A stretch of DNA of 64,000 nt. Origin: Monocercomonoides exilis PA203 (Eukaryota; Protista; Preaxostyla). Below are positions 14,051 to 42,855 of this stretch, piece after piece (the first letter of the stretch is position 1; the number at the start of each line of letters is the position of its first letter). Below the pieces are notes generated by a model, which worked only from the letters and a program-made list of their open reading frames with translations, had not been told where the DNA came from and did no database searches. Both the position numbers and the translations under genes were made by a program. The stretch lies in the NCBI GenBank assembly GCA_001643675.2, contig LSRY02000008.1, positions 868,001-932,000 on the forward strand. Reading direction: 5' to 3'.

Positions 14051-14599
14051 TTTGAATGTTATTTTCTAAAAATCTTAACTTTTTGCAAAGGTATTTCAAA
14101 CATAGTCTTTCCATTTTTCATTTTTTTTTCTCATTGACATTGTTGATTTCTTTTTCATTTCATCTTTTTTTTCGTTTGTTTCTGTTTATGGTTTATTGTT
14201 GTTGTGCAAAATTATTTTTTTCCTGTTTTTTAACAAAGTATCCACAACAAGCTCGATCATAACAATTCACACATGCTATATTTTGGTTTTTCAAAGCTGC
14301 TAACGCTGGCCTACACACTTATAAAAGAAATGAGTGCGAATTAGTTAAAGCTTGAACGAATTAAAAACAATTAATTCAATTATTCATCATTTTTGAAGTA
14401 TTTAAAAATAAAAGATAAAATTATAGCAATGTGCAAATAGCGCATTCTAATAATTGAAAATAATTACTAAGCCGGCTCAAAAAATTGTTTCTGCATGGAT
14501 CAGGAATGAAGTTCTGCTCTATCTTCAGTGCGCGATTCGATATTTGTGGTGCAGCGGAAGAATCAACTTTTTTTCAATAGCTATTATTGGAAACTGTGG

Positions 14600-16063
14600 C
14601 GGAGTGGGTGCAAATGACAAATACAATATTGAATTCTCCTTCAGACTTGGGATTGACTCTTATCTTTGCAAGCTAAAATATCATAACTTTAGCAGGCATC
14701 ACAAACACGCTTGGCAATAGATTTCTTGCGAATTGTGATCGATCCCTACATGCCACACCTCCAACTGCCCTCTTGTCACACTGAACAGCTCTCCAGTTGA
14801 TGATGGAAAAGAAAGTACTCCTGTTCCAATCGAAGTCTAATCTTTACCCGTTCCAATGACTGAAATCTTCTTTGTCTCAATATCAATTGTTGCTGTCTCG
14901 CTTGTGTGATTCCCGTCCATCAGTGTAACTGACAGGCTCACTTGAATCACGCTCTTTTCAACTGCAACACCAATGGTTCGGCATGCACTTGACTCGTTCA
15001 ATCCACACAACTCTTATTCACAGCCGCCACTCACAGCCACAAATCGATTGTGAATCCCTCTCTTCAGCCATTCCTTCTTTTCTGTGTGCTGAAATGTCCA
15101 ACCCGTTGAACTCGAATAATCATGTCCATAACACACTCTCTTCTCGTCTGTGTTTGTGGTGTAGCATTCATAGAACGGATTTCCTGAACCCAAATAGAGA
15201 TTGTATCTGTCCTCGTAATGGATGTCATCTCCATATGATGGATCACTTAAACAACTACAGTCATGAAAGAAAAGGAAAAAGAAATACAGTTTGTCACTTA
15301 GCAACACTTCTTTCCATGGAGAAAAGAACAATCCGCCTCCTTTTGTTGATGCTGTACACGAAGGAAACTGAATACTCCTCATTTTGAATTGCGTTGCATG
15401 AACAGTTTTGCAAAACATACCTCCACCATTAGCATTTTCAACAAAGCACAAAGTGAAATTGCAGTCAAACACACACGAGCTCCTTCCTTCTCCGTCTTCT
15501 TCACCAATGCATCTAGATCCTGAAACCTGAAAATTCACCAATCTCAACCCTCCTCCATCGTGGTGTGCCTTACAATTCTGGAAGTCACATCCGCTGACAA
15601 GGGCACATGAACGAATTTCGCAAGCATACACCCCTCCCCCGCCATAGTTTTGTGCTGTGCACGAATTGAACACGTTGCTCACCATTTTGATCGTCTTGAT
15701 TGCATGGCACATGACTGCTCCCCCATGGTAGTATGCAGCGCAGCCATTGAATGAACAATGAGAAACAGAAAGTTCTCCAGAATTGAGATTGTACATGCAG
15801 ATGGCACCTCCACTCGACATTCCATCCGACCATGAGCCACTTTCTCCTGTTGTCCTCGATCCACTCCACTCGCACCAAGTGAATGTATTCGCTCCATTAT
15901 CCGTTGTATTCTGTCTCCCTGGAGTCATCTTTCTATCTGCAGTTCCAGTGCATTCAACATCTCTTGTTCTGCAACATCCAATGAATGAGGTGTTTGAGGC
16001 AGTTAAAGAGGCCAAGGGGTTGTTGAGAATGAACAATCCCGCCATCATATGCATCACAAACAA
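14600..16063 (-). pseudogene. Fragment of pectin-lyase-like/PMP-type beta-helix surface protein
   Basis: 349-aa ORF with repeated GGA(I/V)/GGG…C.F..C.A motifs. The frame continues past the 15014 stop as ELCGLNESSACRTIGVAV…, with further stops. Confidence 0.75.
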
Positions 16064-21346: not shown

Positions 21347-23988
21347 AGACCTATTTTAGTTAGAATCAATAAATTCAAATATGTTAACTCAATTTCAATT
21401 ACCTTCAACTTATCCAAATTTGCTTAATCTAATTCGAATTCCCTTAAACTTTTTTTTGGTTAAAAGGGCAATTTTATGATCAACACAAAATGATCGCAAG
21501 TTTTTGTTTTTGAGCATTTTTCACTAACTTTGAATGAAAACTGAACAAAAGATTATGGCTCATCATTAAAAAGAAATGTGTGTAATCAATTATTAAAAAT
21601 TTTTGAGTTTTTTCTGTAAATTTTTCTTAAATGTGACTTTTTTTATTATTGATGTATTCTCTTTCACATACACAAGCTTTGCATATTGCTATATGTATTG
21701 GATGATCCATTTTAGCTTTTAACGAGATTCAAATTGTATTTTCTTGAATTTTTTTGCATTTTGCAATATTTTCATTTCAACTTCAATTTTTATTGGCTAT
21801 GAAATAATAAAGAATGAAAATGAAGCTTAAGTTTAAAAATTTTTTTCTTAAAAATAAAACTAAAGAAAAAATCTTATAATTCTAAAAATTCTTTTTCCTT
21901 TTTTTTAAAAAAAGAGAGAAATGAGAAAGAAAATTGGTGAAAGTTTATTAAGAAAAATTATAATGATTATAATGGCCTTCATGTGGTTATTTGAATATAG
22001 TGATTGTTATTTTGTTTGACTATGATTTTCATTGGATGAGAAAGAAGAAGATCGTGCGCAAGATAAGTTTGAATCTGAAAATGCAGAAGAATCTGATTGT
22101 TGAGAAAATAAATGATGAGTTGAAATTAATTGCAAAGACGAAATTGGAAAGTTTGACAGTGGTTGAGTAGAAATTATCGTATCATTCAGTGAAGCTTGAG
22201 AAGAATATTGTGTATTTATTAGGGGCAAGGTGGAATTCGATAAATATTGATCAGATGAAGAAGTCGGCTTCCGCAGACGAGTTGATTCCCATTGATCTTG
22301 AAGAAACCAAGAAAAAGGGCAACTTCTTGTATCGTCGTTTATTCTTTCTCTTTCTTTCAAATTTTCTTCATTTCTTTCAGATTTATTGAAATTGACAGTT
22401 TATCTTTTTTCTTTTTCTTTTTCTTTTTCTTTTTCTTTTTCTTTTTCACTTTCTTTTTCTTCAAAAGTTGAATCATCATCTATTTCTATTTCTTCTCTTT
22501 CTTCTAACTCCAATAATGAATGTTTTTGTTTTTTCTCTTGATCTGAATGCATGGAAAATCGTTTGCAGTATGGGTCGTCTGATTCTGTTGATTCTTCTAA
22601 AAATGATAAATAATGGTAATATGAAAGTGAAAAAATGTTCTTTTCATGCTCAAAAGAACAATGTGTGTGCAAAAACAAAAACAAACCAATTCTTTGGATT
22701 GACTTTGAATATTCAAAAGTTGAATTCTCATTTGAAAGATTAAGTTTTTTTCTTTGTCTTTTTAGACATTGCTCGTTCGCTTTCTTTTTCGCTTCCTTTT
22801 TTTGATAAAATTGAGTGTGAAGTTCGTAAATAATCAACTCGTTTGCTTCGCAATCTGATTTCGTTAAAGGATTGTGTAAAATGTGAAAATTGGTTAAACA
22901 AACTGAAACAATAAAAAAATCTTCAACTGTTTTAATATCCATAGGCCAATTTCTTCTGAACACAGTAAATAAAGTCTTTAATCGTCCAAAAAACTTTTCC
23001 ACAATAACCCTGTGCTTCGATAGATATGGTGTTCCATGTGGTTTTGTAACAATAGCTCCCAGTTCTGCTTTTGCTCCCATATAGGCTGAGTCTGCCATGA
23101 TTTTGGAACCTTTGAGATGTTGAGAGAAGGTTGGATAGTGATTTTTGAATATTTCGTAGTCATGAACGCTTCCTGGGTAAAAATCGCTGATTGTGCTGGC
23201 TAATCCGTTCTTTGGATTGACTCCAATTTCAACTTTAACACAGTAAGAATGATGTTTTCCACTAAAAAATTTCATTCCATCTGCCAATTTTCCACTTGGC
23301 CTGTTAATAGGCACAATTGCGCAACCCATAATTAGACCAACCTCTTGTAACTCTTTAATTCTATCTTTACGAAAAAACAAAAAAAATTCACAACTGTATC
23401 TTTTATGTTTCCAACTATGCTGTGTAACAACTGCGTTACTGAGTTATGTGATTTGTATAATGGATAAGTCAAAAGTTCTGTCATTGATGTTGAGCCCAAA
23501 TGAAGGAAATTGAGTAAAATAAAAAGTTGTTCGTCGATATTTTGAATTGCCTTTTGCTTTCCACGATGTTGAGGTAATTCGTAATCAAGAAAAAGAAGCA
23601 ACATATCAAATTCTGTTCTTGTGAAACCTGTCAAGCGGAAAAATCCGTGAATGGGATCTTCGCTTTTTTGACAAGCTTTTTCTGTTAAGGAATTTTTTTT
23701 CTCTTCTGGAGTTATTGGCGTATGCGTTGGAAGCGTTATTCTTTTTTCTGCTCGCTCAAGAACCTCCAAAAAATTCAATCGTTCCATGACAAATATTTAT
23801 TTGCAAAATTTCAATTGATCTTTCACCATTTTTTGTTCAATCAACTTTATGATCAATAAACCAGTATTTGAAGTTTTGAAATTGATTGAGTCATTATGAA
23901 AAAGAATTTGTTTTATCGTATTTTTATCAAACTTATTTCAATTTTGTTCCACTTTTTCAAATTGAAAAAATATATTTAAAATAGGTCT
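21347..23988 (-). mobile_element. PIF/Harbinger-superfamily element (Pangu-like), ~2.6 kb
   Basis: 12-bp TIR AGACCTATTTTA at both ends; AAT at 21344-21346 and 23989-23991; internal DDE_Tnp_4 transposase. Confidence 0.85.
22400..23787 (-). pseudogene. DDE_Tnp_4 (Harbinger/ISL2EU-type) transposase, one frameshift
   Basis: FFRLTGFTRTEF and EQLFILLNFLHLG (HTH region); FFSGKHHSYCVKVE, PGSVHD, IMADSAY, RVIVEKFFGRLK. Frameshift in A-runs at 23372-23386; the first catalytic position reads G (IMGC). Confidence 0.85.
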
Positions 23989-25479
23989 AATAACAAACAT
24001 GTAAAACTTGCAATTTCTATTGATTCAATAATCCTTTTATTCAAAATCAAAATTTTTTTTCGACATTGAATCGTCATAGAAATAATTTCTGTTTTGAAAA
24101 TAAGTTAAAAGAAATTGAATCACACGAGAGATTGATCTATTCTACCGACTGACCTTTCGACAGACTGATCTTTGTCATTAGACTGATCTCGACAAAGATC
24201 TGTCGATAACCCATTTTTATAGCGTTTTTGGTTATTTTTCAGAAAATTATTTTTTATCAAAAAAAGTTGTTAATTATCAAATGAAATATGAAAATTATTT
24301 TTTTCTTCAAAAAAATCAATAGAAAAAGAGATATATTGAAATATCTTTAAAAATTACAAATAAAAAAGTTTAGAATCTGTCTTGTCGGTCGACTTGTCGA
24401 GGTGCTTTGTGACAAGTCGGCTTGTCTCAAAGGCCTACTCAAAACATCACATATAACGAAAACAAACAATTAACAAACGAAATATGCAAGAATTAAAAAT
24501 TGCAGTAAAATGTGCATATTCCGGTTCTTCTATTAATTTTGAATATTAAGTTCAACACAATTGAATGATAAATTGTGTAATCATATTATTTCAACAAACC
24601 AAAAAAAAAAAAAAAACTGACAAAAATACTCTGAATTTTTCTTCCAGCTGTGATTAGCAATTAATTCTTATTTGTTTGATGATTTTTTTAAAATGAAAAA
24701 TTGCTTTTGTGAAGTGATGTCTCTTTGAAAGAATAAATATTTTTCGTAAAAAAAATTCAAAAATGATTTCATGTTTTTCATCTTCTTATTGAGTCTGTTA
24801 ATTCATGATTCATGTTAATAACAATCAAATCAATGAAATCACTGTTCAAGAATGTTATCTTTCATTGAGGTTGTTGAAGATTTTCATTTGTTGATTATTA
24901 TTGGTGTTCATCACAACAATAGATGAATTGTGAATAGAATTTTTCTATTTGAATAGATTCAACTTATTTAAATGAACTGGGTTTTTCTTAAATGAAGTCA
25001 TGTTATTTTAAATGAGTGAAGTGACACTTGAATAAAGTGCGATACACTCAAATAAAGTTTTTTTGAAAAAATGGTAAACACTAATTATAAAATTTTTACG
25101 TTTTATATTTCACTTTATCAATAAAATAAATTAAAAAATCCAAAATAATTGTGATTTTTCAATATTCTCAAACATAATTTGAGACGTGTTAAAAGAAGAT
25201 TTTATTTGATAGAAACGACGTGAAATGAAAGAAAAAATGAATTTGTTCTCGTTTTTATATCCTGTTTTTTCTCATTAACAAAATATTTGATCATCACGTA
25301 ATTAAATATCTTAAATAAAAATTTGCTTCAATGAATGTTCATGGAGCGATTTATCACTGATATTTTCCGTAGTACTGAAGCGCGAAGCTGAATACATGGG
25401 TTGATGCAGCTTTCGATATCAACTTTCTATATTTACGGCTTATGAATCAATTATTTCATCAGATTTTTATTCAAAAAGC

Positions 25480-26400
25480 CACACTTGATTCTTCTTTAAT
25501 AAATCAGTATCTGCTTTCATCCACTGAGCGTCAGAAGAAATCCTTATCGTCACCATCCCAAACTCCTTCGGATCCTTTCTGCTGTTATCATTCACAATAT
25601 CTTTCTAATCTTCGGCTTCATTTTTTTCCTTCTTCCTCAAACAGCCAAAACAACAATGACTACAAGCAGTAATACAACAACCTCAATGCAAACAATCAAC
25701 TACCAATACGATTTCCCTTCTTTTCCTCCTTCAACAATCCTTTCATCCCCATTTGTTTTCGGCTCACTTCTCTTCTTCAGAACAAATGCATCAGTTGCAG
25801 ACAACCGCTTCCCAAACAAAATCATCACAAACACCTCTGTTTCATCCAAAGCCAATGAAATATTCTCTGATGGAACTCTTCCAATCACTTCCGTTTCTGA
25901 AACAAACCCATCTTCTTTAAAATGATATGTCTCAATCAGGTCTGTATCTCCAGCTGATAAAAACAGTCGGAATGACAAATCACATGGCAGAAGAAGCGCT
26001 CCATTGAATTGAATTTCAGTTCCACCTCCATTTTCGCTGGCAGAAGCCCCTTCCAGCTTGGGAATGAAGAAGGGCAATTCCCTTTCTCCTGCCATCCCTT
26101 CCAGGCTGCATCCATCATCCAGAATCCACAACGAAGAATTATCTTTCACCCCATCTCCTACCTTCAAGCACGAAATAGTCAGCGAAGCAGAATCGAAGCA
26201 GATGATATTATTCGGAGTAAACAATATAAAAAAAATGGATTGTGGTGAAAGAATTATCCTTTCTCAATCGTCACATTTCCAGCCAAGATCGACAATTCAC
26301 AAACGAAGAATTAGAAATTGAAGCTCCTTTGTTATAATTGCTGAATTTTTTTGATGGACAAGAGAATTATTCTGCACAAACAAATCTTCTAATCTTTAAG
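25480..26400 (-). pseudogene. C-terminal fragment of a large single-pass surface protein (cargo)
   Basis: 174-aa ORF ending EGGKEGKSYW*, followed in frame by LIVCIEVVVLLLVVIVVFGCLRKKEKNEAED*KDIVNDNSRKDPKEF: a TM segment plus cytoplasmic tail, with premature stops. Confidence 0.65.
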
Positions 26401-27801
26401 CTTCATCTTGAAAATGAGAAGTGAAGAAACAAAAGCTTCCAGCAAACAGATTTGTTCACACTCCAGCGAAAGAGCAGAACAGCATCAACAAAGCTATTTT
26501 TCTTTTGGTGTATCAACTACAACCTGAGAATGAGCAGTTATTCAAAAAAATCGATGTATTTAGAGAAATCAGCCATTCTCTCTAAGGAGAATTCGAATGA
26601 ACAGAAATGCAGCTGCACAAAATTACTGACAGCTTCATCTCTCTTCTCATTTTATTGTCAGCTCACATCCTTCTTCTCATCATATCTTCTCCGACAAAAC
26701 TTTTCAAAGTTCTGATCTCCAAAAACGGAACCTCATGAATCACACATCATTTTGAGGCCTATGAGAAATTGAAGCAAATTATGCCACAATTTCACATGAT
26801 CTGCCTTGAACATTTTCGCTGATCCGAATTCATCGACTTTTTCCAACAATAAGTTGATTCTTGAAATGGAATTTTGGAACTTCGTTATTACACCTTCTCC
26901 TTTGCAGCACATGAAGATGACCAGGAGCCTGTGAAAATAACCATTTTTTATGGAAAAAAGGACACAAGGGGAAAAAGAATGTGAAAAAACAATATAATTT
27001 CGAATGAGCTTCTGAAAATTTTGAAACAATTGAATAGACCTTAACTCACAAGGAAAACAATCTATGTATTTCACATTTGAGTATTGCTTTATTCGTAAAA
27101 CTGATATACGTTACGAATAATTAGAAAATTCGTTCAACGTGTTTTTAACAATTTTGAGCATTCGATATTCTGGATGCACCTCAATATTAATTTACTAATT
27201 TGTCTTTATTTTCAATTTGTCAGAAATGAATGAGTCTGGTGAGCTAAACTCAATCAACTTTACAAAAGCAATATGTGTTGAACTTTTATTTGACTTTTTG
27301 TTAAACTGATCATGTTTTTTTGGAGATTCTCTCAATATGATATCTTTTCAAGAAGATTTTAACAAATACTAATGATGTATCTCGATTTAAATGTTCTCTG
27401 GGAAAGTTGGAATCATTGTTCAGTGCTGATGTTTCATTTTCCCCATAATTTTGTAAGAATTTTATCTATTTCGAATAATGTCGTTATTGTCTGGCACAAG
27501 CTCAATTGCTTTCTTTGGAATTCCTAGAGATGATGAAGTTTCACACATTGGAAGGTTTTCATTTTGAATTTTTCGTATTGTTGACATTTGTACAAAAATA
27601 TGCAGGGAAAAGAATGTGGAATGTCCATCGTTTGATCAAAACGTTTTTAAATTTAATGCACACTAGAAAAATAAATCCTGTGAAAGTCTTTCCCAAAATG
27701 AAGATAATTCATCTCATCAACAAACTGTTTCATCAACATCAAATGTTCTGAATGTTGCTAATCATACAACACCATTTGTTAACAACGAAACAAGAGAACA
27801 T

Positions 27802-29386
27802 TTGAATTCAAAAATTCAAAAAACTTCAGATAGTCCTTCTATTAAAGAGTCGCCTTCAAAATATACTCTGAATTCAACAAAAATCAAAGAGAAAAGATAC
27901 AAAAAAATGAAGCAATCTGTTAATCTGCGGAATGAAAAGCCGAAGCGGAAACAGCCGGATTTTGACGAAATGCAGGATAGGAAAACAAAACAATTGGAAA
28001 AAATAGAAAAGATTGATATTAATGAAGATAAAGAGAAAAAAATAGAATCACTAGGATTTATCACTGATCATTATCTTCGTTTCACCTATGATGAGCATTT
28101 ACGTTTACCGAAAACAACAATTGTTGAACTTGTAAATTTGATAAAATCCATTTTGAATAGCGCACCGAAAAAAGGGCCTCCATCAACACTTTCACCACAT
28201 GATAAGCTTATAGTGTATCTTGAGTGGCTGTCCAGCAGGACGACCTTGGAGAGGATTTCCTCTTTAATGGGTATATCTCAATCAATGGCAAGCAATTGTT
28301 TGACTGATATACGTCCCGCATTGCTTTCTGCGTTGAATGAAATTTTTTCCACTCCACCTAGGCCTCCAACAATTCCCAACGAAGAATTTCCTAATGTTGC
28401 TTTGTTAGTCGATGCAACGACAATCAAAGTGCCATATCCCATTTCTACCACATTCACCGAAGGGAAAAAACTGTTTGATGCACATCATTCAGTTTACTGC
28501 ATCAAAAACGAAGTGGCGGTTTCATCTTGGAAACCTCACAAAGCCTTATTCGTTTCTGACGCGATTGAAGGAGGAAAACATGATGTTTTTCTGTTTCGAA
28601 AAGGAATGAAAAGATATGAGGAATATATGAAAAAAACCGATGAAGAAAGAATAAGGAATTATCATGATTTAAGGAATGATAGCTGGGTGATCATGGGAGA
28701 CAAAGGATATCAAGGACATTTCCCAAACATTCGATTGATCACTCCCATCAAAAAATGTTTTATCCAAGAATTGACTTCCGTAAAATTTTCATCAGAAATA
28801 GCCAAGCTTCCTTCTCCTCCTCGTTCTCCTTCTCCTCCTTCCTCTCCTCCTTCCTCTCCTTCTTTTACTTCTCCACAACAACTCCCTTCACTCCCTGCAC
28901 CTCCTCCGCTTCCTCTTATTCCTCAAACTGAATCGTATTCCACTTTCCCTGAATGCTCCCAAGCTTTCACCCAACTTCCTTCTGATTGTTTTCCTGAAAC
29001 AATGAAATCAACATCACAAGCCTTGTCACAACTTTCATTCATTGATTCTTCCATTTCATCATTAACAAAAAGCGCATCATCATCATCAACGACTGAATCC
29101 TCTAGCTCCATATTCGACCAACTCACCGAACAAGAATTGGATTCTCTGAGTATTGATGAATTCAACAAGAGCATTGCAAGATGCCGTATTCCTGTTGAAT
29201 GGTTTTTTCGGCCGGATGAAAAAGCTTTGGCTCAGACTTTCTGATACCTACTCAGGAGGCAGAGAAAACGTTGGAACAGATGCAAAAATAGCAAGTTGGT
29301 TGACTAATTTGGTTATTGACTATCACAGATTGGAAGATGATGATGGTAAATTTTATAAGAAAACAGAAGTGTTTGAGTGTTATTAA
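27802..29386 (+). CDS. DDE_Tnp_4 transposase with HTH; single frameshift near the C-terminus
   Basis: LSPHDKLIVYLEWL…ISSLMGISQS (HTH), LLVDATT, HHSVYCIKNE, GGKHD, IMGDKGY, RIPVEWFF/GRMKKLW. One extra T in the T6 run at 29203-29208. Confidence 0.85.
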
Positions 29387-30137
29387 GAAAATGAAAGAAA
29401 GAAAATAAGAGATATTAATACACATGCAAACACCGAAAGAAAAGCAATTCGAAAAACTTCATTTATGTAACAATTTTTTATCATTGGCTTTTGAAATATT
29501 TCGAAAACAAACGAAAATACAGGAGCACGATTTCCAACTCATATTTTTATGTACGACAATTGCATTTTTGTGTCAAATTGAACAAAGGAATGGAAATTTC
29601 ATTTATTTCTTGATGAGATTCATTTTTCTGTTGTTCTATTTCTATACCTCAAAAGATTAAGATAAAAAACATTCTTGTTTTCTTCGAATGATTTATTTTA
29701 ATTTCAAAGACACAAATGCTTCACTAATTTTATCATATTGCACAAAAGAAAAGAAAAGTCAAGAAAAGAAATAAACAATTTTAATTAATTGTTGAAGAAA
29801 TGAACAAATGATTTTTTATTATTCGCAAAAAGTTATTTGGCATCGAAAAATGAGATCTTGATTTTTATTTACAAAATAAATTATTTGACGAAAATAACAA
29901 AAATAATTTCCAAAACAATATTTTCAATATATAAATAATATTTGAATGATTTTGCAATCAACTAATTTTGTAATTTATTTGTTTATTTTTTCCAAAATTT
30001 CTCGAAGCTCAAATGAACTCAGTCTAACTCAAATGAACTCGGTTTATTCAAACAAACTCGATCTATTCGAACAAACATGAGTTCATTTGAATAAACCTAG
30101 TTTATTTGAATAAAAAAAATCTATTCAAAATTCATCT

Positions 30138-33100
30138 AATGAAAGATTTCTCATTGCACAAAATATTGATTCCATGATAAATCACTGTACCGATAAAAAC
30201 AATTCATTCTATGATGGAAAAAGAAGATAAACTTGTTGTTCACTTGATGAATGTGCTCCATAATAAAATAATGCCGAGGATGATTTGCCTGTTTTTCGCT
30301 TTGCTGGGGGCGCTGAGGGCTGCGGAGCGTGGGCAGGGGCAGGGGCAGCGGAACTACCTGCAACTGCGCGATGGGGAGCTGCCTCGTATGTGTGCGTTTT
30401 GGTTGGCGTCTTGCCGCGAAGTGGCGATGAAATGACTTTTGATGTTTTGTGTGATTTGTGTGATTTTTTTGGGTTGGGTGGGAAGAGTGGTACAACGTGA
30501 CGGTGCAGCAGGACAAGGGGCGGGAGTGCCTGGAGAGGGCGTTTTCGGGGTATGACTGCGGGAAGATGACGCTGCAGGAGAAGCTTCGGCTGACCATCAA
30601 GCTGCTGAACTGCTATGGGGACGAGATGGGTTTGGCTTTTCTGTTTTTTCTATTTCTTGGGGGTTTTTGGGATTTGGGGTGGGAATGATTGGGCGATTGC
30701 TGGCGGGGCTGTGATTTGCAGGGCTGAAGCCGTACCGGTGCGCAGACAGCTGGGACATTTCGGTGTGCATGAAGAAGCTGAACGACGAAGAGAAGTCGTC
30801 GATCCGGGACAAATCGCTGACGATAGGTTTGGGTCATCTTTGTGTTCTGTGCTGTAATTGTTTTGTTTTATTTGACTTTGTGACTTGTGGTTCATTGTGT
30901 GTTGGAGGCAGACAGTGTTTGCTATTCGTTCAAAAACGAGACGGTGATGCAGCGGATAAGCATGCTGGTGGATCGGGTGGTGGCGGGGAGCGAGGAGACG
31001 CTGGAGCAGCTGTACAGCCTTGTGGAGACGTCGCAGTCGGTTTTTGAAGCGACGAAGGAGTCGGTGGAGATGCAGGCGCAGCTTGCTGTGCAGCAGGAAG
31101 GGATGAAGGCGGAGATGAAGGGGATTGAGGAGGAGCACCAGAAGCAGAGGGAGCTGATCCAGAAGGGGTTTGGGGAGATTGGGGATGCGACTGGTTTGGT
31201 TCACAGCTGTATTTGATTGAAGAAAGTGAAATCAATGAAATTTATCTCTCTCTCTCTTTTTTTTGTTTTTTTCAATTTTCATTGTGAAAGAGGGGATTAA
31301 GGAGAAGATAAGTGAGTCGGTGAGGGAGACGAAGGAGCTGGGGGCGGTGCAGAGGGAGGTGTGTGAGGAGCAGAGGAGGTGGGCGGCGGGGATGAAGGAG
31401 CAGCTGTCGGGGGTGGCGGAGTCGGCGGGGGAGGTTGCGGAGTGGATGAAGGCGGCGGCGGCGGGGCAGGCGAAGATGGAGGCGGCGGCAGCAGCGATTG
31501 GGGCAGGGATAGGGGCGGTGGGGCAGATGCAGCGGGAGGCGGAGGAGGCGCTGGGGCGGATAGGGAGGGAGCAGGAGGGGATGAAAGGGGTGCAGGCAGA
31601 GACGCGGGAGGAGCAGAAGAGGATGAGGGCAGAGATGGAGATGGTTTGGGAGAGCTCATCAAATTCATTTTATTATCCTTTTTTATTCCTCTTTTATTTA
31701 TTTTTTGACAGTCGTTTGACAGCATAGCGCACCAGCACAGGAGCCTGCAGAGGCAGATGGAGGAGTCGGTGGAGCACTCGGAGCAGATCTTGGAGCAGCA
31801 GAGGCGGGCGGTGGCAGAGATGGAGGGGGTGATGGCTGTGCAGGGGAAGGCGTTTGAGGAGACGGTGAGGCAGCTGGTGGACATCCGGAGCGACACAACG
31901 GTGTGGGTGGTGAGGGTGGTGAGGATGGTGAGGATGGTGAGGGTGGGAATGCTATTATTTTTCTTCTATTTCTTTTTTTGTGGGAGAGAGAGAAAAAAAA
32001 CATAAAGAGTGAAAATGCTTTGTTTTCTTTGTCATTTTATTTCTCTTTTTCTCTTTTTTCTTTTTTCTTTTTCATTTCTTTTTGTTTTTGTTTTTGTGGG
32101 GGGAATGGAACATGGGAAGATGGTGACGGAGAGGCTGAGGCAGCAGAATGAATATCTTCGGACAGAGTTTTCGTCAGTGCGGGTGTGGATGCAGCGGATT
32201 CTGAGTGGGCAGTCATCGATTTTTGGTTTGAGGCAAAAGGAAAAGAAAAGAAAATTCAAAAATATTTTATTTATTTTATTTTTGTATGTTTTGATGATTT
32301 GTGCATTCGCAGCTGACTTGAGTGGGCTGCACAGCATTGCGTTTTATGTGGCTTGTCTGCTGTTCTTCCAGCTGGTGACGTCGCTTCCGCACACAAAAGA
32401 GGCACGAATATGGATATTTTATTGTTTGCCTGTGAAGAAATGAGAGGAAAGAGAGAGAAAGAGAGAGAAAGAGAGAGGAAGAGACTGCTTTCCATTCATG
32501 TTCATTTTTATTGTATTTTTCTGTTCTTCTTCTTCTCATTCGATTTCGTTCTTCTTCTCTTTTGTGATTCATCTTAAACAATGACGAAATATGGAATGGA
32601 GTGTGGGTGGTGTTTTTTGTGGGGGAGCGAGGGATTTTGTGGGTTGTTGGCAGGAGCGGGGCAGCGGCAGAGGAGATGAGGCGGTTTGCAGGCAGCTGGC
32701 ACATGCTGTTTGTTTGTTTGTGTGTGTGTGCTGTGGGGCATGCGGTGTGGACATACAAAGACTACGAGGCGCTGAACAACACCCTTCTGAAAGAGAACTG
32801 GAAGAAAGCGAGAGAACTGACGAATGCGGTTGGTGATGCTTGGAATATATTTCATCTTCTTCAATAATGTCTTCATCTTCATCTTCATCTTTCTTTTTTC
32901 TTTTTTATTTGTTTTTGTTTGTATTCAGTTCCGATTCTATGCAGATGAAGTGAGCCGGCTGAAGAGGCAGGAAGAGGATGGGCAGCGAAGAGGAAATGGG
33001 CAGTGTGGGGGAAAGAGAAGGAAGAAAGGGGAGAAAGAAGGGAGTGTGTGGATTGGGAGGAGTTTTGATTCATTTGGGTTTCCATCAGCAAAAGAGAAGA

Positions 33101-33729
33101 GAACAACATTTGATGAACACACATCATCATCATCATCATCTTCTTCTTCTTCTTCTCCTTCTCCTTCTCCTCCTCTTCCCCCTCATCCCTATCTGCATTT
33201 TTATCCACTTCGCTCTTCTTCTCACTTCAGCCAATTCGACGAGGATTCATTTGCTTTTGAGAGAAACACGAGGAGAGCTGCTTCTGTTTGAGAAAGAGAA
33301 AGAGAAAGACAAACAATTTATTTATTTCAATTTAATAGAAATGGAAATGGAAATAAACATTCAATGAAATATCAGGAGAGAAAGAAAAAGAAAAAAATGA
33401 AGAAATCAGATAATTTTGCCTGTTTGCAGTTTTTGTGTTGTTTTTATGTTTGCTGCTTGGACAAACGCATTCAAACCTCATTTCATCCATTCTCAAATGT
33501 TTATTGCTTGTTTTGTTAATTTTTGCATTTTTGGAAGAGAAAGTTGCATTGTTTTGTTTTTGAAGGATTGCAGCAATTATAAAAAAGATGAAACAAACGA
33601 TTTCGAACAGAACATTCCACAAACAAGAAGAAGCTGTTTGTTTTTGAATGAGAAGAAATTGTTTGCTGTTTGGGGTTGTTCAAATGAAGTGTTTTATTCT
33701 TGTTGCATTTTCTTGTTCATGAAATGATT
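30138..33729 (+). repeat. Left arm of large inverted duplication (plus displaced outer part ~24725-24920)
   Basis: Reverse complement of 39075-42660; the ORF track is mirror-symmetric. Confidence 0.97.
30271..33291 (+). CDS. GEX1: GEX1/KAR5/Brambleberry-family nuclear membrane fusion protein, copy 1 (multi-exon)
   Basis: Signal peptide MPRMICLFFALLGALRA. Spliced exons (30271-30385, 30486-30629, 30722-30826, 30912-…) give the Cys-rich domain CLERAFSGYDCGKMTLQEKLRLTIKLLNCY…PYRCADSWDISVCMKKL…IDSVCYSFKNE. This is followed by a long coiled coil, TM segments (SIAFYVACLLFFQLVTSLPHTKEARIWIFY; LFVCLCVCAVGHAVWTYKDY) and a cytoplasmic tail. Confidence 0.88.
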
Positions 33730-33959
33730 GAGATGCAAAAAAACTGAAATGTTCAAAAAAAAAATTACTATTTTATTTATTTGATAAAAAAAGAAAAGAA
33801 AAATAGAATGCCAATAAATGCACAACTAACATCCCCTGAACGAAATCTTCTTTTCTTCTGTTTCAGAAAGAAAAGAAAAGAAAAGGTAATAAAAAATGAA
33901 TATTTTCTTTTAAATTGAATAAATGCAAAAAGGGTAATTCCTCCTCCTCTTTTTTCTTT

Positions 33960-36900
33960 CTATTCTTCTTTTTCTTTTTCTTTTTCTTTTTCTTTTTCTT
34001 TTTCTTTTTCTTTTTCTTTCTCTTTCTCCTCTCCATTCCCAAACAACAAACGCAGTTGTTGTTTTCTCCAATCAAGTTCTTCTTCTTCCTCCTCTTCCTC
34101 TCCTCTTCCTCCTCCTCTTCCTTCTGTATTCACATAACTTCCATCTTCACCACTGCTACTGCTGCTACTACTGCTTCTTCCATCGTTATTTCCTCCTTCT
34201 TCTCCTTCCTCTTTTTCTCCATCTTCAATATCTTCTCCTTCTTCTCCTCTCTCCTCTCCCATTCCCCTCCTCCTCCTCCCTCTCCCCTTCTTCCCATTCG
34301 CCCTGTTCTTCATCCCAAACACACACAGAACAAACCCCAATCCAAATGGAATGAAATAGTTCTCAGAAACACTCCGGACAAACGAAAGCGCCAAAAACGG
34401 CTCAAAAAAGACACGAACACGCTGCCTCGCTTCTTCACAGCTGCACTTCAGCACAAACACGAAGTACTTCGCATAATAATATGGCTTGTTTTCGGGTGTA
34501 TAACAGCCTGCCAGCTCGAGCAGCCTGAGAATTGCCTCTTTCTTCTTGTAGCGCACGACTTCCGGTGAACGAGGAGAATGAGAAGAAGAAGAGGAAGAAG
34601 AAGAGGAAGAAGAAACAGAAGGATGATTAGAACTCAACCGATGAGGAACGAGAACAGTCAGAAATTCGCCGAGCACCTCGCGTGTTGTGTTCTCGTTCAC
34701 CAATTCTTTCGACTCGTCTTCGATTTTCTCTGCCAATTTCCCTTCAAAATGCTCTCTTCTGATCACATCCTGCCCAAACACCACGTCGGCCTCTCCATCT
34801 GCCACCATCTCAACCAGCCGCAGCAGACTCAGGCTCCTCACAAGCTTCTCTGCTTTCTCTGCTTCCCCATTTTCCTTCATGACAATTGAGAAGACAGAAA
34901 GAAGGCGCATTCTTCTGCCCCTTCTGAACGGATTGAAATGGCAGAAGAATCGCTTAATCTTTGAAGTGAATGAATTTGAAGAAGAAGAAGATGAAGAAGA
35001 TGCAAATGATGAAGTGATTTTACCAGAATTATCAGCATCAACAGAACAAGCTCCCAAACCCAACTGAACTGCCTTCAATTCCTTCTGATCTTCTTCTTCT
35101 TCTTCTTCTTCTTCTTCTTCTCTTCTTCCTCCTCTTCTCCCTCCTTCTCTTCCACCATCTCCAAACACATCCCACACCATCCTCAGCACCTCGTCGTCGA
35201 TTCCCTCTGGCCAGCTCTTCCACGGCTGCAGTCCTTTCCCTATCTTCTCCCACAAACTCTTCGGCTTCTCAAACATTCTGTACACCTGCACCACTTCCTC
35301 CTCCAGCGGCCTCACTTCTCCAAAACTGAACTCTTCTGCCACATCTGCGTTGGAGTAGAACGGATGGTACGAAAAGGAACGGAGCTCTGGCGAATGGTGA
35401 AGATGCCGCTTTGAGTGGGGGCTGGGAAAGAGAATGTGCTTGGGAGAAGAAGAAGAGGAGGAGGAGAAGGAAGAAGAGGAAGAAGAGTGAGAAGAAGAAG
35501 AAGAAGAAGATGTTGTTGTTGAAGATGAAGATGAAGTTACATTTGTTTTTTCTGTAGTTGAATTCGTTTTCTTCACTTTGTTGCTATCTTCCCTTCTCCC
35601 TTCTTCCTCAGTGCTGTTTGTGGAAACTTGAACAAAAATCGATTTGACTTCGTCTCCAAACAGAAACTGTCTTTGCAGCTGTGTCTTCACATTGGGATGA
35701 GAAGAGCTTGCAATCTCATACAGCTGCAGCGCATCAGAAACATACGAATCAATCAAAATTTTCATTTTTCTCATCTTCTCTTCTTCTTCCCTTCTCTTTT
35801 TTGCTTCCATTCTCAACTCATTTATTGAATTATCCTTCAACTTCTTCTCTTCTTTCTCTTTCTCCATCTCTTTCTCCATCTCTTCCATCTCCTTCCTCAT
35901 CTCCCTTGCTTCTCTCCTCATCTCATCTGCCAACAATACCATCGCCACTCGATGTCCCTCACACGCCGCTTGCAGAAGCAGCTGCCCCGCAGACAACGAC
36001 CCCACACACGGAAACCCCAACGGTGAATCCAATGGGAAGAGAGAAGAAGAAGAAGAAGAAGAAGAAGATAGCGATGAAGAAGAAGTTGAAGAAGTTGAAG
36101 AGAAAGAGATAGAGTCTGAAGAATGAAATGGGCTTTCATTTTCGTTCTGATTTTTGTTTCCATTCAAATTTTGATGTTCACTTTGTTTCCCCTCAACTCC
36201 ATTCATTGTCATTTCCCTCTTCTCCTCTTTCTCCCTCAAATCTCTTTCTTCTCCTTCTCTTTCTCTTTCTCTTTCTCCTTCCCCTTCTCCTCCCCCTTCT
36301 GTTAGTAACATCTGCTTCAGCAGTTGTCTGTCTGTGTTGAGTCTGCTGTTGAGTGAAGACAGGCAAATGTCTCCAGCAAGTGCCATCGCATCAGCCATGC
36401 CAATGTCAGCGAGTGAGAGCAGAGAGAAGAACGAGGTCCATTCTTTGGCCTGTTGGAGGGTGTATTGCTTGTGGAGGATGGAAGAAGAGGAAGAAGAGAA
36501 AGAAGAAGAAGAAGAAGAAGAAGAAGAAGAAGAAGAAGAAGAAGAAGAAGAACTTGTAGAAGAAGAGTCATAAGAATCCCTCACTGAATCAGCCTCCCCC
36601 ATCTCTTTCTGATTTCTCTCTCTTTCAAATGCCTCAATATACTCCTTCTGTGCGAGGATGTGGTCAACAACCATCCCATCAGCCACAATGGATGATGCAG
36701 CATTAACCGATTCACACAGAAGAGCGTGATAAGCAGGCGACATCTTCAGCAGGCTCATCAGCTGTGCCATCGCCTGTGAATAAAGCACACTCGACTGAAG
36801 AGACTCAGAAAGAGTGCAGTATGGATGGCTCCTCAGTGCTTCCTGCACAGAAAAGGAGGAAGAAGAAGAGGAAGATAAGTTATTTCTTCCATTTTTATTG

Positions 36901-38126
36901 ATTCTGCCTTCTTCTTTTTCTTCTTCTTCTTTTCCTTCTCTCTTGCTTCCCCTTTGCCACACAGCTGCTCCTTCCTCTCTGAGCGACAGGCGCATCTGCT
37001 CCTCAAACAGCTGCTTCGTCACAAACACATTCGCCAGCCAGTATTTCGACCAGACAGAGCCAAAATAGTTGAATGCATTCTCTTCAATGTACTCACACGC
37101 CAGCTGAAGTGCGGCCTGCAGCAGCTCCACATCTGAAAGCTCTGTGTCTTCTGTGGTTGGGCCTTTGAAGTCTTCTTTGTTTTCTTCTTTGCTTTCTTCT
37201 TTCTCTTTCTTTTTCTCTTTCTCTTTACCTTTCTTCTCTTTGACATTATTTGTCTGTTCATTTGCTTGTCTCTGCTCCTTTGTCACATGCTGTGTAACAG
37301 AGTTGAAAGTGGTTGTTCTGTTTTCCTTTCCCTCTGCCGTGTCAAAAAGGCTGCTGTTCTCCTTCAACAAGGAGGGATAGCAGTATAAAAGCACTCCCAG
37401 CATAAAGTTCTTCTTCGCCGGAAAAAGCGTCTCTGTCTGCAGCATCGCAAACACTCGCTTCACAGCCGGCGGTGGCGCCTCGTCCAAAATGCTTCCGTCT
37501 TCCCACTTCGCAAAGAACACCGCTGCCCCGTCAGGCACCAGCCACCCGAAGCCTTCTCTCCACAGCTCTGCCAGCGCAATCATGTCCTGCTTCGGAAAGT
37601 CATCTTCTGTGCCCTCTTTCGCAAAGTGCGCGGTGGCTCGCCCGAAGTCGATGCGGTCGCTGCCGATGCCGTAGAGATGGTACATTCCGAAGAACCGGTT
37701 GCGTTTCATGCTGCCCAAATAGTCTTTCTCTTCGGTTGCTCGAGAGAATGAAGGTTCCACTCCAGCTGTCTGTATCGCAGTGAAAAATGCATCTGCACCG
37801 CTTTTCTTCTCACTGTCATAAAATTTGTAGTATGCTTGCTTGTTCTTTTTCAAAGCCGATCGAAATTTGGCAGACTTGTTCGCGATAAGTTGAAAATCAA
37901 TGCAACTGTCAACTTCCATGGATTGATCAGCATCACAAGGTGGAATAACTCCCAGCCAGGAATAAAATGATGTGTATGTTGGAACAAAGGCCATGTTCAA
38001 AAGTGTAGAACGCGCCAAGTTCCTCATATATAAAAATGAAAATAAAAGATCATGATCATTATTTCTAATCAAAAAGGGATTATGCAAAAGATGAGAGGCA
38101 AAAGAAAAAGAAGCTTCAGCGTTCAT
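33960..38126 (-). CDS. Large membrane protein with divergent SEL1-like repeats (HRD3/SEL1L-like?); probable extra 5' exons up to ~38450
   Basis: 1388-aa open frame with motifs GMYHLYGIGSDRIDFGRATAHF, DMIALAELWREGFG, ADIGMADAMALAGD, AACEGHRVAMVLLAD. It has a C-terminal hydrophobic segment (YFIPFGLGFVLCVFGM) and poly-Ser/Glu inserts. Confidence 0.55.
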   Translation of the reverse strand: MNAEASFSFASHLLHNPFLIRNNDHDLLFSFLYMRNLARSTLLNMAFVPTYTSFYSWLGVIPPCDADQSMEVDSCIDFQLIANKSAKFRSALKKNKQAYYKFYDSEKKSGADAFFTAIQTAGVEPSFSRATEEKDYLGSMKRNRFFGMYHLYGIGSDRIDFGRATAHFAKEGTEDDFPKQDMIALAELWREGFGWLVPDGAAVFFAKWEDGSILDEAPPPAVKRVFAMLQTETLFPAKKNFMLGVLLYCYPSLLKENSSLFDTAEGKENRTTTFNSVTQHVTKEQRQANEQTNNVKEKKGKEKEKKKEKEESKEENKEDFKGPTTEDTELSDVELLQAALQLACEYIEENAFNYFGSVWSKYWLANVFVTKQLFEEQMRLSLREEGAAVWQRGSKREGKEEEEKEEGRINKNGRNNLSSSSSSSFSVQEALRSHPYCTLSESLQSSVLYSQAMAQLMSLLKMSPAYHALLCESVNAASSIVADGMVVDHILAQKEYIEAFERERNQKEMGEADSVRDSYDSSSTSSSSSSSSSSSSSSSSSSFSSSSSSILHKQYTLQQAKEWTSFFSLLSLADIGMADAMALAGDICLSSLNSRLNTDRQLLKQMLLTEGGGEGEGEREREREGEERDLREKEEKREMTMNGVEGKQSEHQNLNGNKNQNENESPFHSSDSISFSSTSSTSSSSLSSSSSSSSSLFPLDSPLGFPCVGSLSAGQLLLQAACEGHRVAMVLLADEMRREAREMRKEMEEMEKEMEKEKEEKKLKDNSINELRMEAKKRREEEEKMRKMKILIDSYVSDALQLYEIASSSHPNVKTQLQRQFLFGDEVKSIFVQVSTNSTEEEGRREDSNKVKKTNSTTEKTNVTSSSSSTTTSSSSSSSHSSSSSSFSSSSSSSPKHILFPSPHSKRHLHHSPELRSFSYHPFYSNADVAEEFSFGEVRPLEEEVVQVYRMFEKPKSLWEKIGKGLQPWKSWPEGIDDEVLRMVWDVFGDGGREGGRRGGRREEEEEEEEEEDQKELKAVQLGLGACSVDADNSGKITSSFASSSSSSSSNSFTSKIKRFFCHFNPFRRGRRMRLLSVFSIVMKENGEAEKAEKLVRSLSLLRLVEMVADGEADVVFGQDVIRREHFEGKLAEKIEDESKELVNENTTREVLGEFLTVLVPHRLSSNHPSVSSSSSSSSSSSHSPRSPEVVRYKKKEAILRLLELAGCYTPENKPYYYAKYFVFVLKCSCEEARQRVRVFFEPFLALSFVRSVSENYFIPFGLGFVLCVFGMKNRANGKKGRGRRRRGMGEERGEEGEDIEDGEKEEGEEGGNNDGRSSSSSSSSGEDGSYVNTEGRGGGRGEEEEEEEELDWRKQQLRLLFGNGEEKEKEKEKEKEKEKEKEKEKEE

Positions 38127-39074: not shown

Positions 39075-42000
39075 AATCATTTCATGACAAGAAAATGCAA
39101 CAAGAATAAATCACTTCATTTGAACAACCCCAAACAGCAAACAATTTCTTCTCATTCAAAAACAAACAGCTTCTTCTTGTTTGTGGAATGTTCTGTTCGA
39201 AATCGTTTGTTTCATCTTTTTTATAATTGCTGCAATCCTTCAAAAACAAAACAATGCAACTTTCTCTTCCAAAAATGCAAAAATTAACAAAACAAGCAAT
39301 AAACATTTGAGAATGGATGAAATGAGGTTTGAATGCGTTTGTCCAAGCAGCAAACATAAAAACAACACAAAAACTGCAAACAGGCAAAATTATCTGATTT
39401 CTTCATTTTTTTCTTTTTCTTTCTCTCCTGATATTTCATTGAATGTTTATTTCCATTTCCATTTCTATTAAATTGAAATAAATAAATTGTTTGTCTTTCT
39501 CTTTCTCTTTCTCAAACAGAAGCAGCTCTCCTCGTGTTTCTCTCAAAAGCAAATGAATCCTCGTCGAATTGGCTGAAGTGAGAAGAAGAGCGAAGTGGAT
39601 AAAAATGCAGATAGGGATGAGGGGGAAGAGGAGGAGAAGGAGAAGGAGAAGAAGAAGAAGAAGATGATGATGATGATGATGTGTGTTCATCAAATGTTGT
39701 TCTCTTCTCTTTTGCTGATGGAAACCCAAATGAATCAAAACTCCTCCCAATCCACACACTCCCTTCTTTCTCCCCTTTCTTCCTTCTCTTTCCCCCACAC
39801 TGCCCATTTCCTCTTCGCTGCCCATCCTCTTCCTGCCTCTTCAGCCGGCTCACTTCATCTGCATAGAATCGGAACTGAATACAAACAAAAACAAATAAAA
39901 AAGAAAAAAGAAAGATGAAGATGAAGATGAAGACATTATTGAAGAAGATGAAATATATTCCAAGCATCACCAACCGCATTCGTCAGTTCTCTCGCTTTCT
40001 TCCAGTTCTCTTTCAGAAGGGTGTTGTTCAGCGCCTCGTAGTCTTTGTATGTCCACACCGCATGCCCCACAGCACACACACACAAACAAACAAACAGCAT
40101 GTGCCAGCTGCCTGCAAACCGCCTCATCTCCTCTGCCGCTGCCCCGCTCCTGCCAACAACCCACAAAATCCCTCGCTCCCCCACAAAAAACACCACCCAC
40201 ACTCCATTCCATATTTCGTCATTGTTTAAGATGAATCACAAAAGAGAAGAAGAACGAAATCGAATGAGAAGAAGAAGAACAGAAAAATACAATAAAAATG
40301 AACATGAATGGAAAGCAGTCTCTTCCTCTCTCTTTCTCTCTCTTTCTCTCTCTTTCCTCTCATTTCTTCACAGGCAAACAATAAAATATCCATATTCGTG
40401 CCTCTTTTGTGTGCGGAAGCGACGTCACCAGCTGGAAGAACAGCAGACAAGCCACATAAAACGCAATGCTGTGCAGCCCACTCAAGTCAGCTGCGAATGC
40501 ACAAATCATCAAAACATACAAAAATAAAATAAATAAAATATTTTTGAATTTTCTTTTCTTTTCCTTTTGCCTCAAACCAAAAATCGATGACTGCCCACTC
40601 AGAATCCGCTGCATCCACACCCGCACTGACGAAAACTCTGTCCGAAGATATTCATTCTGCTGCCTCAGCCTCTCCGTCACCATCTTCCCATGTTCCATTC
40701 CCCCCACAAAAACAAAAACAAAAAGAAATGAAAAAGAAAAAGAAAAAGAGAAAAAGAGAAATAAAATGACAAAGAAAACAAAGCATTTTCACTCTTTATG
40801 TTTTTTTTCTCTCTCTCCCACAAAAAAAGAAATAGAAGAAAAATAATAGCATTCCCACCCTCACCATCCTCACCATCCTCACCACCCTCACCACCCACAC
40901 CGTTGTGTCGCTCCGGATGTCCACCAGCTGCCTCACCGTCTCCTCAAACGCCTTCCCCTGCACAGCCATCACCCCCTCCATCTCTGCCACCGCCCGCCTC
41001 TGCTGCTCCAAGATCTGCTCCGAGTGCTCCACCGACTCCTCCATCTGCCTCTGCAGGCTCCTGTGCTGGTGCGCTATGCTGTCAAACGACTGTCAAAAAA
41101 TAAATAAAAGAGGAATAAAAAAGGATAATAAAATGAATTTGATGAGCTCTCCCAAACCATCTCCATCTCTGCCCGCATCCTCTTCTGCTCCTCCCGCGTC
41201 TCTGCCTGCACCCCTTTCATCCCCTCCTGCTCCCTCCCTATCCGCCCCAGCGCCTCCTCCGCCTCCCGCTGCATCTGCCCCACTGCCCCTATCCCCGCCC
41301 CAATCGCTGCTGCTGCTGCCTCCATCTTCGCCTGCCCCGCCGCCGCCGCCTTCATCCACTCCGCAACCTCCCCCGCCGACTCCGCCACCCCCGACAGCTG
41401 CTCCTTCATCCCCGCCGCCCACCTCCTCTGCTCCTCACACACCTCCCTCTGCACCGCCCCCAGCTCCTTCGTCTCCCTCACCGACTCACTTATCTTCTCC
41501 TTAATCCCCTCTTTCACAATGAAAATTGAAAAAAACAAAAAAAAGAGAGAGAGAGATAAATTTCATTGATTTCACTTTCTTCAATCAAATACAGCTGTGA
41601 ACCAAACCAGTCGCATCCCCAATCTCCCCAAACCCCTTCTGGATCAGCTCCCTCTGCTTCTGGTGCTCCTCCTCAATCCCCTTCATCTCCGCCTTCATCC
41701 CTTCCTGCTGCACAGCAAGCTGCGCCTGCATCTCCACCGACTCCTTCGTCGCTTCAAAAACCGACTGCGACGTCTCCACAAGGCTGTACAGCTGCTCCAG
41801 CGTCTCCTCGCTCCCCGCCACCACCCGATCCACCAGCATGCTTATCCGCTGCATCACCGTCTCGTTTTTGAACGAATAGCAAACACTGTCTGCCTCCAAC
41901 ACACAATGAACCACAAGTCACAAAGTCAAATAAAACAAAACAATTACAGCACAGAACACAAAGATGACCCAAACCTATCGTCAGCGATTTGTCTCGGATC

Positions 42001-42855
42001 GACGACTTCTCTTCGTCATTCAGCTTCTTCATGCACACCGAAATGTCCCAGCTGTCTGCGCACCGGTACGGCTTCAGCCCTGCAAATCACGACCCCACCA
42101 ACAATCGCCCAATCATTCCCACCCCAAATCCCAAAAACCCCCAAGAAATGGAAAAAAGAAAAGCCAAACCCATCTCGTCCCCATAGCAGTTCAGCAGCTT
42201 GATGGTCAGCCGAAGCTTCTCCTGCAGCGTCATCTTCCCGCAGTCATACCCCGAAAACGCCCTCTCCAGGCACTCCCGCCCCTTGTCCTGCTGCACCGTC
42301 ACGTTGTACCACTCTTCCCACCCAACCCAAAAAAATCACACAAATCACACAAAACATCAAAAGTCATTTCATCGCCACTTCGCGGCAAGACGCCAACCAA
42401 AACGCACACATACGAGGCAGCTCCCCATCGCGCAGTTGCAGGTAGTTCCGCTGCCCCTGCCCCTGCCCACGCTCCGCAGCCCTCAGCGCCCCCAGCAAAG
42501 CGAAAAACAAGCAAATCATTCTCGGCATTATTTTATTATGGAGCACATTCATCAAGTGAACAACAAGTTTATCTTCTTTTTCCATCATAGAATGAATTGT
42601 TTTTATCGGTACAGTGGTTCATCGTGAAATCAATATTTTGTGCAACGTGAAATCTTTCATGGCTGTGATGAAAACCAAAAATAATTAAAAAAAGAAAAAC
42701 TTCATCAACCTCAATGAAAGATAATATTCTTGAACAATGATTTCATTAACTTGATAGTTATGAACATGAATCATGAATTAACAGACTCAATAAGAAGATT
42801 GAAAAACTTGAAATGATTTTTGATTTTTTTATTAAAAGTTTGAAAATTTCTTCAA
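39075..42855 (-). repeat. Right arm of large inverted duplication
   Basis: 39075-42660 mirrors 30138-33729; 42660-~42855 mirrors ~24725-24920 with more mismatches. Confidence 0.95.
39512..42528 (-). CDS. GEX1: GEX1/KAR5-family protein, copy 2 (multi-exon)
   Basis: Mirror copy of 30271-33291; exon-spanning ORF translations are identical (e.g. 41074-41538 vs 31263-31727). Confidence 0.88.

Follow-up and report, generated by a model that had tools for sequence, protein, structure and literature searches.

Results

We examined a 64,000-nucleotide stretch of the oxymonad Monocercomonoides exilis PA203 (assembly GCA_001643675.2, contig LSRY02000008.1, positions 868,001 to 932,000 of the forward strand), hereafter called the window, within which all coordinates below are given. 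The window carries two inverted copies of GEX1: copy 1 on the plus strand (30271..33291; ten exons, 664 amino acids, or 684 from an in-frame ATG at 30211) and copy 2, encoding the same protein, on the minus strand (39512..42528). Upstream of copy 1 lies a DNA transposon of 5217 bp (24921..30137, plus strand) that belongs to the PHIS group, appears Pangu-like, and is likely non-autonomous. The reading that we consider probable is that this element, whose transposase is broken, sits 130 bases upstream of copy 1 through an insertion that likely followed the duplication, and that copy 1 was not switched off by it.

The element is flanked by a duplicated AAT (24918..24920 on the left, 30138..30140 on the right, neither assigned a strand), and its terminal inverted repeats begin with AG. 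The left repeat (24921..24950, plus strand) matches the right end at 17 of 18 and 26 of 30 positions, while the right end (30011..30137, plus strand) combines subterminal repeats of a unit of ~19 bp with the terminal inverted repeat itself (30108-30137). In a window-wide scan for inverted repeats accompanied by a 3-bp duplication, with 30 block-shuffled windows as background, the 24921/30137 pair ranked first with 18 of 20 letters, a match expected by chance at 0.03 per window. Alternative readings of the ends, as a 2-bp AT duplication or as a 1-bp duplication with longer repeats, were set aside; they left the ends asymmetric or unlike known targets.

Once the element and one AAT are removed, the flanks align across the site without a gap to the reverse-complemented right arm of the inverted duplication, where the paralogous empty site reads CAT (42659..42661, minus strand) and thus differs from AAT in one of the three target letters. 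The insertion severed the distal upstream segment of the duplicated unit (24741..24920, plus strand), which differs from the right arm at 19 of 178 sites, and its counterpart in the right arm is uninterrupted (42662..42840, minus strand). The initial annotation had described this arrangement, including the CAT in the right arm, and had staked it on a collinear join of 24920 to 30141; the alignment, when run, makes that join gap-free. It had also put the end of the insertion ~130 bp before the GEX1 start codon with the transposase pointing toward the gene, which agrees with the 130 bases that we measure from the second AAT to ATG 30271 and with a transposase frame on the plus strand. From the element side to ATG 30211, the start of the public model (P0006), the distance is 70 bases. 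Each arm also has a short upstream frame that opens at the target site and runs into a stop.

Public DNA contigs from runs X1 and X3, which represent one sample, were aligned to 29790-31230, and at least 31 letters inside the element were required for a contig to count as bridging the junction. An X3 contig (30103-31230) bridges the right junction, with 35 letters in the element and no other letters over 1128 bases; an X1 contig (30115-30212) has just 23 letters inside the element and falls below that bar. At 30172-30182 the X1 depths are 53.8 for the left type and 46 for the right type, and the depth where the arms are identical and the two are summed is 98.2, so the two arms are present at about 1:1 in the DNA. 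A common empty left allele is argued against because the left-type X1 contig crosses the junction unbroken at full single-copy depth; a rare excision would escape notice. Summed over the right terminal repeat, depth reaches 8625 against ~50 for a single copy, a figure that reflects many related ends and is no measure of copy number, and the right-end repeats (30011-30137) are common to many other copies in the DNA runs.

All nine introns of the GEX1 model are GT-AG, and the model equals the public protein except for 20 extra N-terminal residues from ATG 30211. We favor the start codon at 30271 because GC content rises there from 0.28 to 0.65 and a hydrophobic stretch follows. A search with a single GEX1 exon returned one protein at 100% identity; named putative GEX1 and assigned to M. 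exilis, it has two pairs of accessions, both on the same contig. Members of the GEX1/KAR5 family are described in the available part of PMC4291462 as having six cysteines on the N-terminal side, two or three C-terminal membrane segments, a signal peptide, and coiled coils. The 664-amino-acid model has six cysteines (C53, C63, C81, C93, C102, and C125, placed without alignment to known members), hydropathy maxima (window starts near 430-440, 466, and 499-502) where the C-terminal membrane segments would lie, an N-terminus that is hydrophobic by eye, and weak matches to coiled-coil families; the protein had no match to Pfam Tht1.

The two copies differ at nine coding positions in 1995 bases, and all nine differences are synonymous, such that the predicted proteins are identical. 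With 22% of sites synonymous, random changes would give this outcome with a probability of 1e-6 to 2e-5, which overstates the case because the differences are clustered. Under neutral evolution the left copy should have gathered 3.8 to 15.7 amino-acid changes, and none is seen.

Both copies also appear in RNA. We aligned metatranscriptome runs X5 and X6, two of the four runs listed and both from a single study. Each yielded 85-nucleotide contigs whose last letters are the opening ones of exon 4 and which are therefore spliced at intron 3: one contig with no other letters and one with two, a pattern that fits the left and the right copy, respectively, at positions 30783 and 30807. The left/right depths are 19.3/11.2 in X5 and 9.5/15.6 in X6, giving a pooled ratio of 1.07 with a bias that reverses between runs. 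Because left-type spliced contigs occur in both runs, an off state of copy 1 is contradicted, and there is no consistent copy bias. The initial annotation had proposed that the copies form a natural on/off or differential-expression pair owing to their different upstream contexts, and that copy-specific RNA read through the silent single-nucleotide polymorphisms (SNPs) would reveal it. Both variants proved to be spliced at similar depth in both runs, contrary to that proposal. As for the contexts themselves, the distal ones do differ, but over the nearest 88 bases, counted back from ATG 30271, the two copies are identical. For comparison, the mean 5' untranslated region (UTR) in M. exilis is 62 bp according to the portion of PMC8767320 available, which also names motifs of the AATAAA/AAATAA type as poly(A) signals; several such motifs lie between the transposase and GEX1.

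Spliced RNA of GEX1, a gene that acts in karyogamy, was present (30753-31154) in two metatranscriptome runs, although no direct observation of sex has been made in metamonads (PMC8516963, in the part available).

The left arm of the inverted duplication (30183..33742, plus strand) is ~99.5% identical to the right arm inside, its first 88 bases being the same, and is separated from the insertion by a diverged 42-bp edge (30141..30182, plus strand) with 6 differences. There are 17 difference events in 3501 bases of arm interior and 5 differing sites among 1022 in the introns. In the upstream segment, by contrast with the interior, 25 of 220 aligned sites differ (~89% identity on both sides of the insertion), and divergence is alike on the two sides of the site (19/178 and 6/42). 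Six differences fall within 50 bases of the insertion (P 2e-7 at the interior rate) and five within the final 51 bases of the arm's opposite end (P 6e-6); beyond the arms, the 3' and 5' flanks are unrelated. With so few intron differences (5 of 1022 sites), selection alone is insufficient to account for the identity of the arms, and gene conversion from arm to arm is therefore its likely cause. The steep rise in differences at both ends of the arm points to an insertion near the edge of the homogenized unit. The element may also be younger than the upstream divergence, since its right end has 2 private substitutions in 119 bases (1.7%, 95% interval 0.2-5.9%) versus 11% (7.5-16%), or ~5.7% per lineage, upstream.

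Two further features of the arms are worth recording. Differences fall in tight clusters (30279/30289, 30700-30710, 30783/30807, and 31484-31517, within 30279-31626), as patchy conversion tracts would leave, and synonymous sites differ more between arms (2.0%) than introns do (0.5%). An X1 contig that joins a right-type intron to left-type exon letters was not accepted as a recombinant; it may be a merged bubble. The earlier suggestion that recombination between the arms exchanges coding sequence thus gains support as regards past exchange but not as regards any effect on the protein, because all nine coding differences are synonymous. Were a crossover to occur, it would invert the spacer and exchange parts of GEX1 that encode the same protein.

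Within the element, a 445-amino-acid frame (27907..29244, plus strand) matches DDE_Tnp_4 at E 4.4e-5 and 23.6 bits, under the curated cut-off of 24.8. A frame break near 29205, shortly past the third catalytic acid, cuts it short, and the C-terminal part continues in another frame (29204..29461, plus strand), which meets a stop at 29384-29386 in a stretch that two relatives keep open. Because of this break and this stop, as compared with its paralogs, the copy is likely non-autonomous. The paralogs lie on other contigs at 89-93% identity, all five matches being named M. exilis; the paralogs P0001, P0003, and P0009 exceed the DDE_Tnp_4 cut-off and match an IS5 model weakly. A Ser/Pro-rich insert of ~115 amino acids lies between the second and third catalytic acids. 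Searching profiles of solved structures gave three weak matches, none of them a transposase. The element has no intact second frame; in its place are decayed frames at ~27230-27660 and, as cargo, a broken fragment of a receptor-like protein kinase from an expanded gene family of the host (25536..26392, minus strand), with a stop and frame changes. This fragment, ~0.9 kb in the left half of the element, has 41 matches, all named M. exilis and most with PF07714, the best at 80% identity, and its tblastn pieces fall in three frames. M. exilis kinases of this kind are noted in the available part of PMC8767320 to overlap unclassified repeats.

The element has the marks of a PHIS transposon, namely a DDE_Tnp_4/IS5-like DDE transposase and terminal inverted repeats at a short AT-rich target (17/18, with AAT on both sides). 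Three kinds of PHIS element are distinguished in the part of Han et al. 2015 (PMC4482050) available. PIF/Harbinger elements have a TWA target and a Myb/SANT frame; ISL2EU elements have a 2-bp AT duplication in an A/AT/T target, repeats starting with GG, a THAP domain on the transposase, and a YqaJ second frame; Pangu elements have an ANT target, ends of 11-40 bp starting with AG or GG, a DDE transposase without another domain, and a second frame usually without a known motif, with coding families of 2-8 kb. A strict PIF/Harbinger assignment failed at the target, which is AAT both here and at a second element (21347-23988), and no Myb/SANT match at E up to 0.5 was found in the 12 of 29 listed frames scanned, in an element decayed enough that loss is possible. 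ISL2EU was likewise rejected: the right end is followed by AAT and then G, the ends start with AG, no THAP domain was found in the 525-amino-acid stop-to-stop frame, the three paralogs, or any of the 29 relatives scanned, and YqaJ had no match in the 12 frames scanned.

The Pangu description fits better. AAT is an ANT target (the empty paralogous CAT is one letter off), and loose ends of other copies continue past the right end with AAT or ATT in all six such rows among the 16 of 41 rows shown. The repeats start with AG and extend over 18-30 bp, and the transposase is a plain DDE protein whose sole extra match is a sub-threshold HTH_Tnp_4 (E 0.036). All 29 relatives scanned, out of 150 listed, have DDE_Tnp_4 alone or with DDE_Tnp_1, and the relatives found are unnamed or protist proteins. 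By these three testable marks, rather than by a tree, we class the element as Pangu-like. The label of Harbinger-group element in the initial annotation is apt in its loose sense, because many Pangu families bear "Harbinger" names in Repbase (PMC4482050, in the part available), but the element is not PIF/Harbinger proper.

Other mobile DNA lies nearby. The second PHIS element, at 21347-23988 (2642 bp), has AAT on both sides and perfect 12-bp ends starting with AG; its ends match at 16 of 20 letters, within chance (1.9 per shuffled window), and the transposase inside supports it as an element. That DDE_Tnp_4 transposase is on the minus strand, split in two frames (22400-23787), and shares ~25-28% identity with the first. 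At 24436 (24110-24439) stands an isolated transposon-like end that starts with AG on the minus strand, is followed by ACT, and has short internal repeats; no partner for it was found in the window. Farther away, an element at 12644-17297 has inverted ends of ~310 bp (78% alike), a GG start, and an 8-bp duplication. Merlin elements, reported in this genome, have GG ends and 8-bp duplications (PMC8101967, in the part available). This element contains a Cys/Gly-rich frame (15014-16081) matched by one kinase-family protein, and because two types of transposon carry kinase-like pieces, there is a hint of transposon-driven spread of the expanded kinase family.

The spacer between the GEX1 arms is filled by a single intronless frame of 1388 amino acids (33960..38126, minus strand) with no Pfam family; an Atlas search gave a Sel1-repeat lead of 0.85, which is a lead only, as all scores were below 0.9 and recognition was low. 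Elsewhere in the window are a ~130-bp inverted repeat (96% alike; 50480-51090) flanking a stretch that is itself palindromic, perhaps a miniature element, and, at 55133-56296 and 62435-63619, a tubulin-tyrosine-ligase family fragment (E 3e-13) and a 394-amino-acid protein of tandem Trp/Met-rich repeats.

Discussion

The history that we propose for this locus would begin with duplication of GEX1 in inverted order. An element of a multi-copy family would then have inserted by cut-and-paste at an ANT site adjoining other transposons, and would have decayed after its arrival. Copy 1 likely kept its promoter and start site inside the retained 130 bases, of which the nearest 88 are identical in the copies. 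Conversion between the arms, together with selection, would keep both genes near-identical while the upstream 220 bases drift. On this account the insertion is probably near neutral for expression and may have helped to set where conversion stops. Because spliced RNA has the variants of both copies and the predicted proteins are identical, the element is likely a tolerated passenger rather than an on/off switch.

Several considerations weigh against this account. On the RNA side, a single study supplied both samples, the copies were told apart by one pair of SNPs, expression is poorly captured by contig depth, and the presence of the insertion in those samples is assumed. The RNA contigs leave the element end, the 5' region, and exons 1-2 uncovered, and so give no evidence on read-through or on start sites. 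Over 700 of 5279 annotated 5' UTRs exceed 100 bp, according to the portion of PMC8767320 available, and if translation starts at ATG 30211, the retained stretch shrinks to 70 bases and the promoter could extend into the element. The clustered synonymous differences are not independent and are possibly older than the insertion. Finally, insertion after the duplication is indistinguishable from an earlier insertion followed by clean excision from the right arm.

The strongest alternative, possible though short of an even chance and compatible with the history above, is that the insertion matters mainly as a recombination barrier, a 5.2-kb gap at which conversion halts and beyond which the upstream regions drift. 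The concentration of differences beside the insertion (6 in 50 bases) and at the other end (5 in 51), as against 17 in 3501 in the interior, is what such a barrier would produce, as is the similar divergence on the two sides of the site. The match between edge and site could nonetheless be coincidence, and the private substitutions in the element (1.7%) compared with the upstream divergence (11%) suggest that the element may have arrived too late.

Less likely, and in our estimate unlikely, is a modest shift in the level or start of copy 1, or an effect confined to an unseen sexual stage, brought about by read-through, a promoter in the element end, or silencing that spreads out of the transposon cluster. 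The element end is 70-130 bases from the candidate start codons, its transposase is oriented toward GEX1, and close on its far side come the second element and another transposon-like end. GEX1 acts in karyogamy, and sex has so far escaped direct observation in metamonads (PMC8516963, as far as available). Against these points stand the splicing of both variants in both runs without consistent bias, the identity of the nearest 88 bases, and the several AATAAA/AAATAA motifs that separate the transposase from the gene.

More speculatively, the palindrome could be an invertible sex cassette, in which a crossover flips the 5.3-kb spacer with its 1388-amino-acid gene relative to a transposon-packed and a plain side, and the insertion gives the copies different regulation only in a sexual stage unseen in oxymonads. 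Such a cassette would resemble the flip/flop mating-type switching of methylotrophic yeasts. We regard the combination as very improbable, a low standing that it keeps because the contigs cannot phase the arms. A true on/off pair, in which the nearby insertion silenced copy 1 and conversion from copy 2 merely kept it intact, has slighter prospects still: the insertion is close to the gene and conversion is indicated, but left-type spliced RNA occurs in both runs, deeper than right-type in one, the nine coding differences include no amino-acid change, and the RNA contradicts silencing, except in the case that the cultures behind it carry no insertion or that the variants have changed places between the arms. 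Least credible is an assembly artefact, with arms that are alleles or a misjoin and no genome holding both sites; although short contigs cannot phase across 3.6-kb arms and junction reads cover the right side only, the right junction is bridged, depths of 53.8 and 46 merge to 98.2, the public annotation places two accession pairs for the identical GEX1 protein on a single contig, the coding differences are synonymous only, and the 3' and 5' flanks of the arms are unrelated.

Taken as a probable passenger insertion, the locus provides an oxymonad example of a Pangu-like PHIS family with its filled and empty sites cleanly paired; the insertion is genuine but of an ordinary kind, and the proposed natural on/off experiment is absent in the conditions sampled. 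The locus also shows a karyogamy gene, GEX1, that is duplicated, has kept its amino-acid sequence unchanged, and yields spliced RNA of both copies where sex is unobserved, which lends indirect support to cryptic sex in this lineage. The nine silent variants can serve as copy markers. In the open literature we found only a paper on Merlin elements when looking for Harbinger transposons in Monocercomonoides, nothing on GEX1 in oxymonads, and nothing specific on ploidy or oxymonad meiosis.

The locus can be set beside several known systems. Pack-type DNA transposons hold host gene fragments between their terminal repeats, as this element does, but here a broken transposase is kept and capture is suggested by one copy. 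With Pangu, as described in the available part of PMC4482050, the element shares the ANT duplication, short AG-start repeats, a DDE_Tnp_4 transposase without a further strong domain, and a size within 2-8 kb; it differs in having no intact second frame, a host kinase fragment inside, and a transposase with the Ser/Pro-rich insert of ~115 amino acids between the second and third catalytic acids, and metamonads are not among the host groups named in that part. Strict PIF/Harbinger elements, as described there, likewise have a DDE_Tnp_4 transposase, a 3-bp duplication, and short repeats starting with a purine, but AAT takes the place of TWA here and a Myb/SANT frame was not found in the frames scanned. 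The GEX1 proteins resemble GEX1/KAR5/Brambleberry, as portrayed in the accessible portion of PMC4291462, in their hydrophobic N-terminus, six cysteines, long helical middle, and three C-terminal hydrophobic segments, and differ in coming from two inverted copies with identical proteins and in lacking a Pfam Tht1 match. Finally, the palindromes kept by conversion on the mammalian X and Y and the willow W, so far as the available accounts describe them, likewise combine arms of >99% identity with a reproduction gene and a unique spacer, whereas the arms here are 3.6 kb long and belong to a protist with no known sex chromosome, in which conversion is indicated by one genome.

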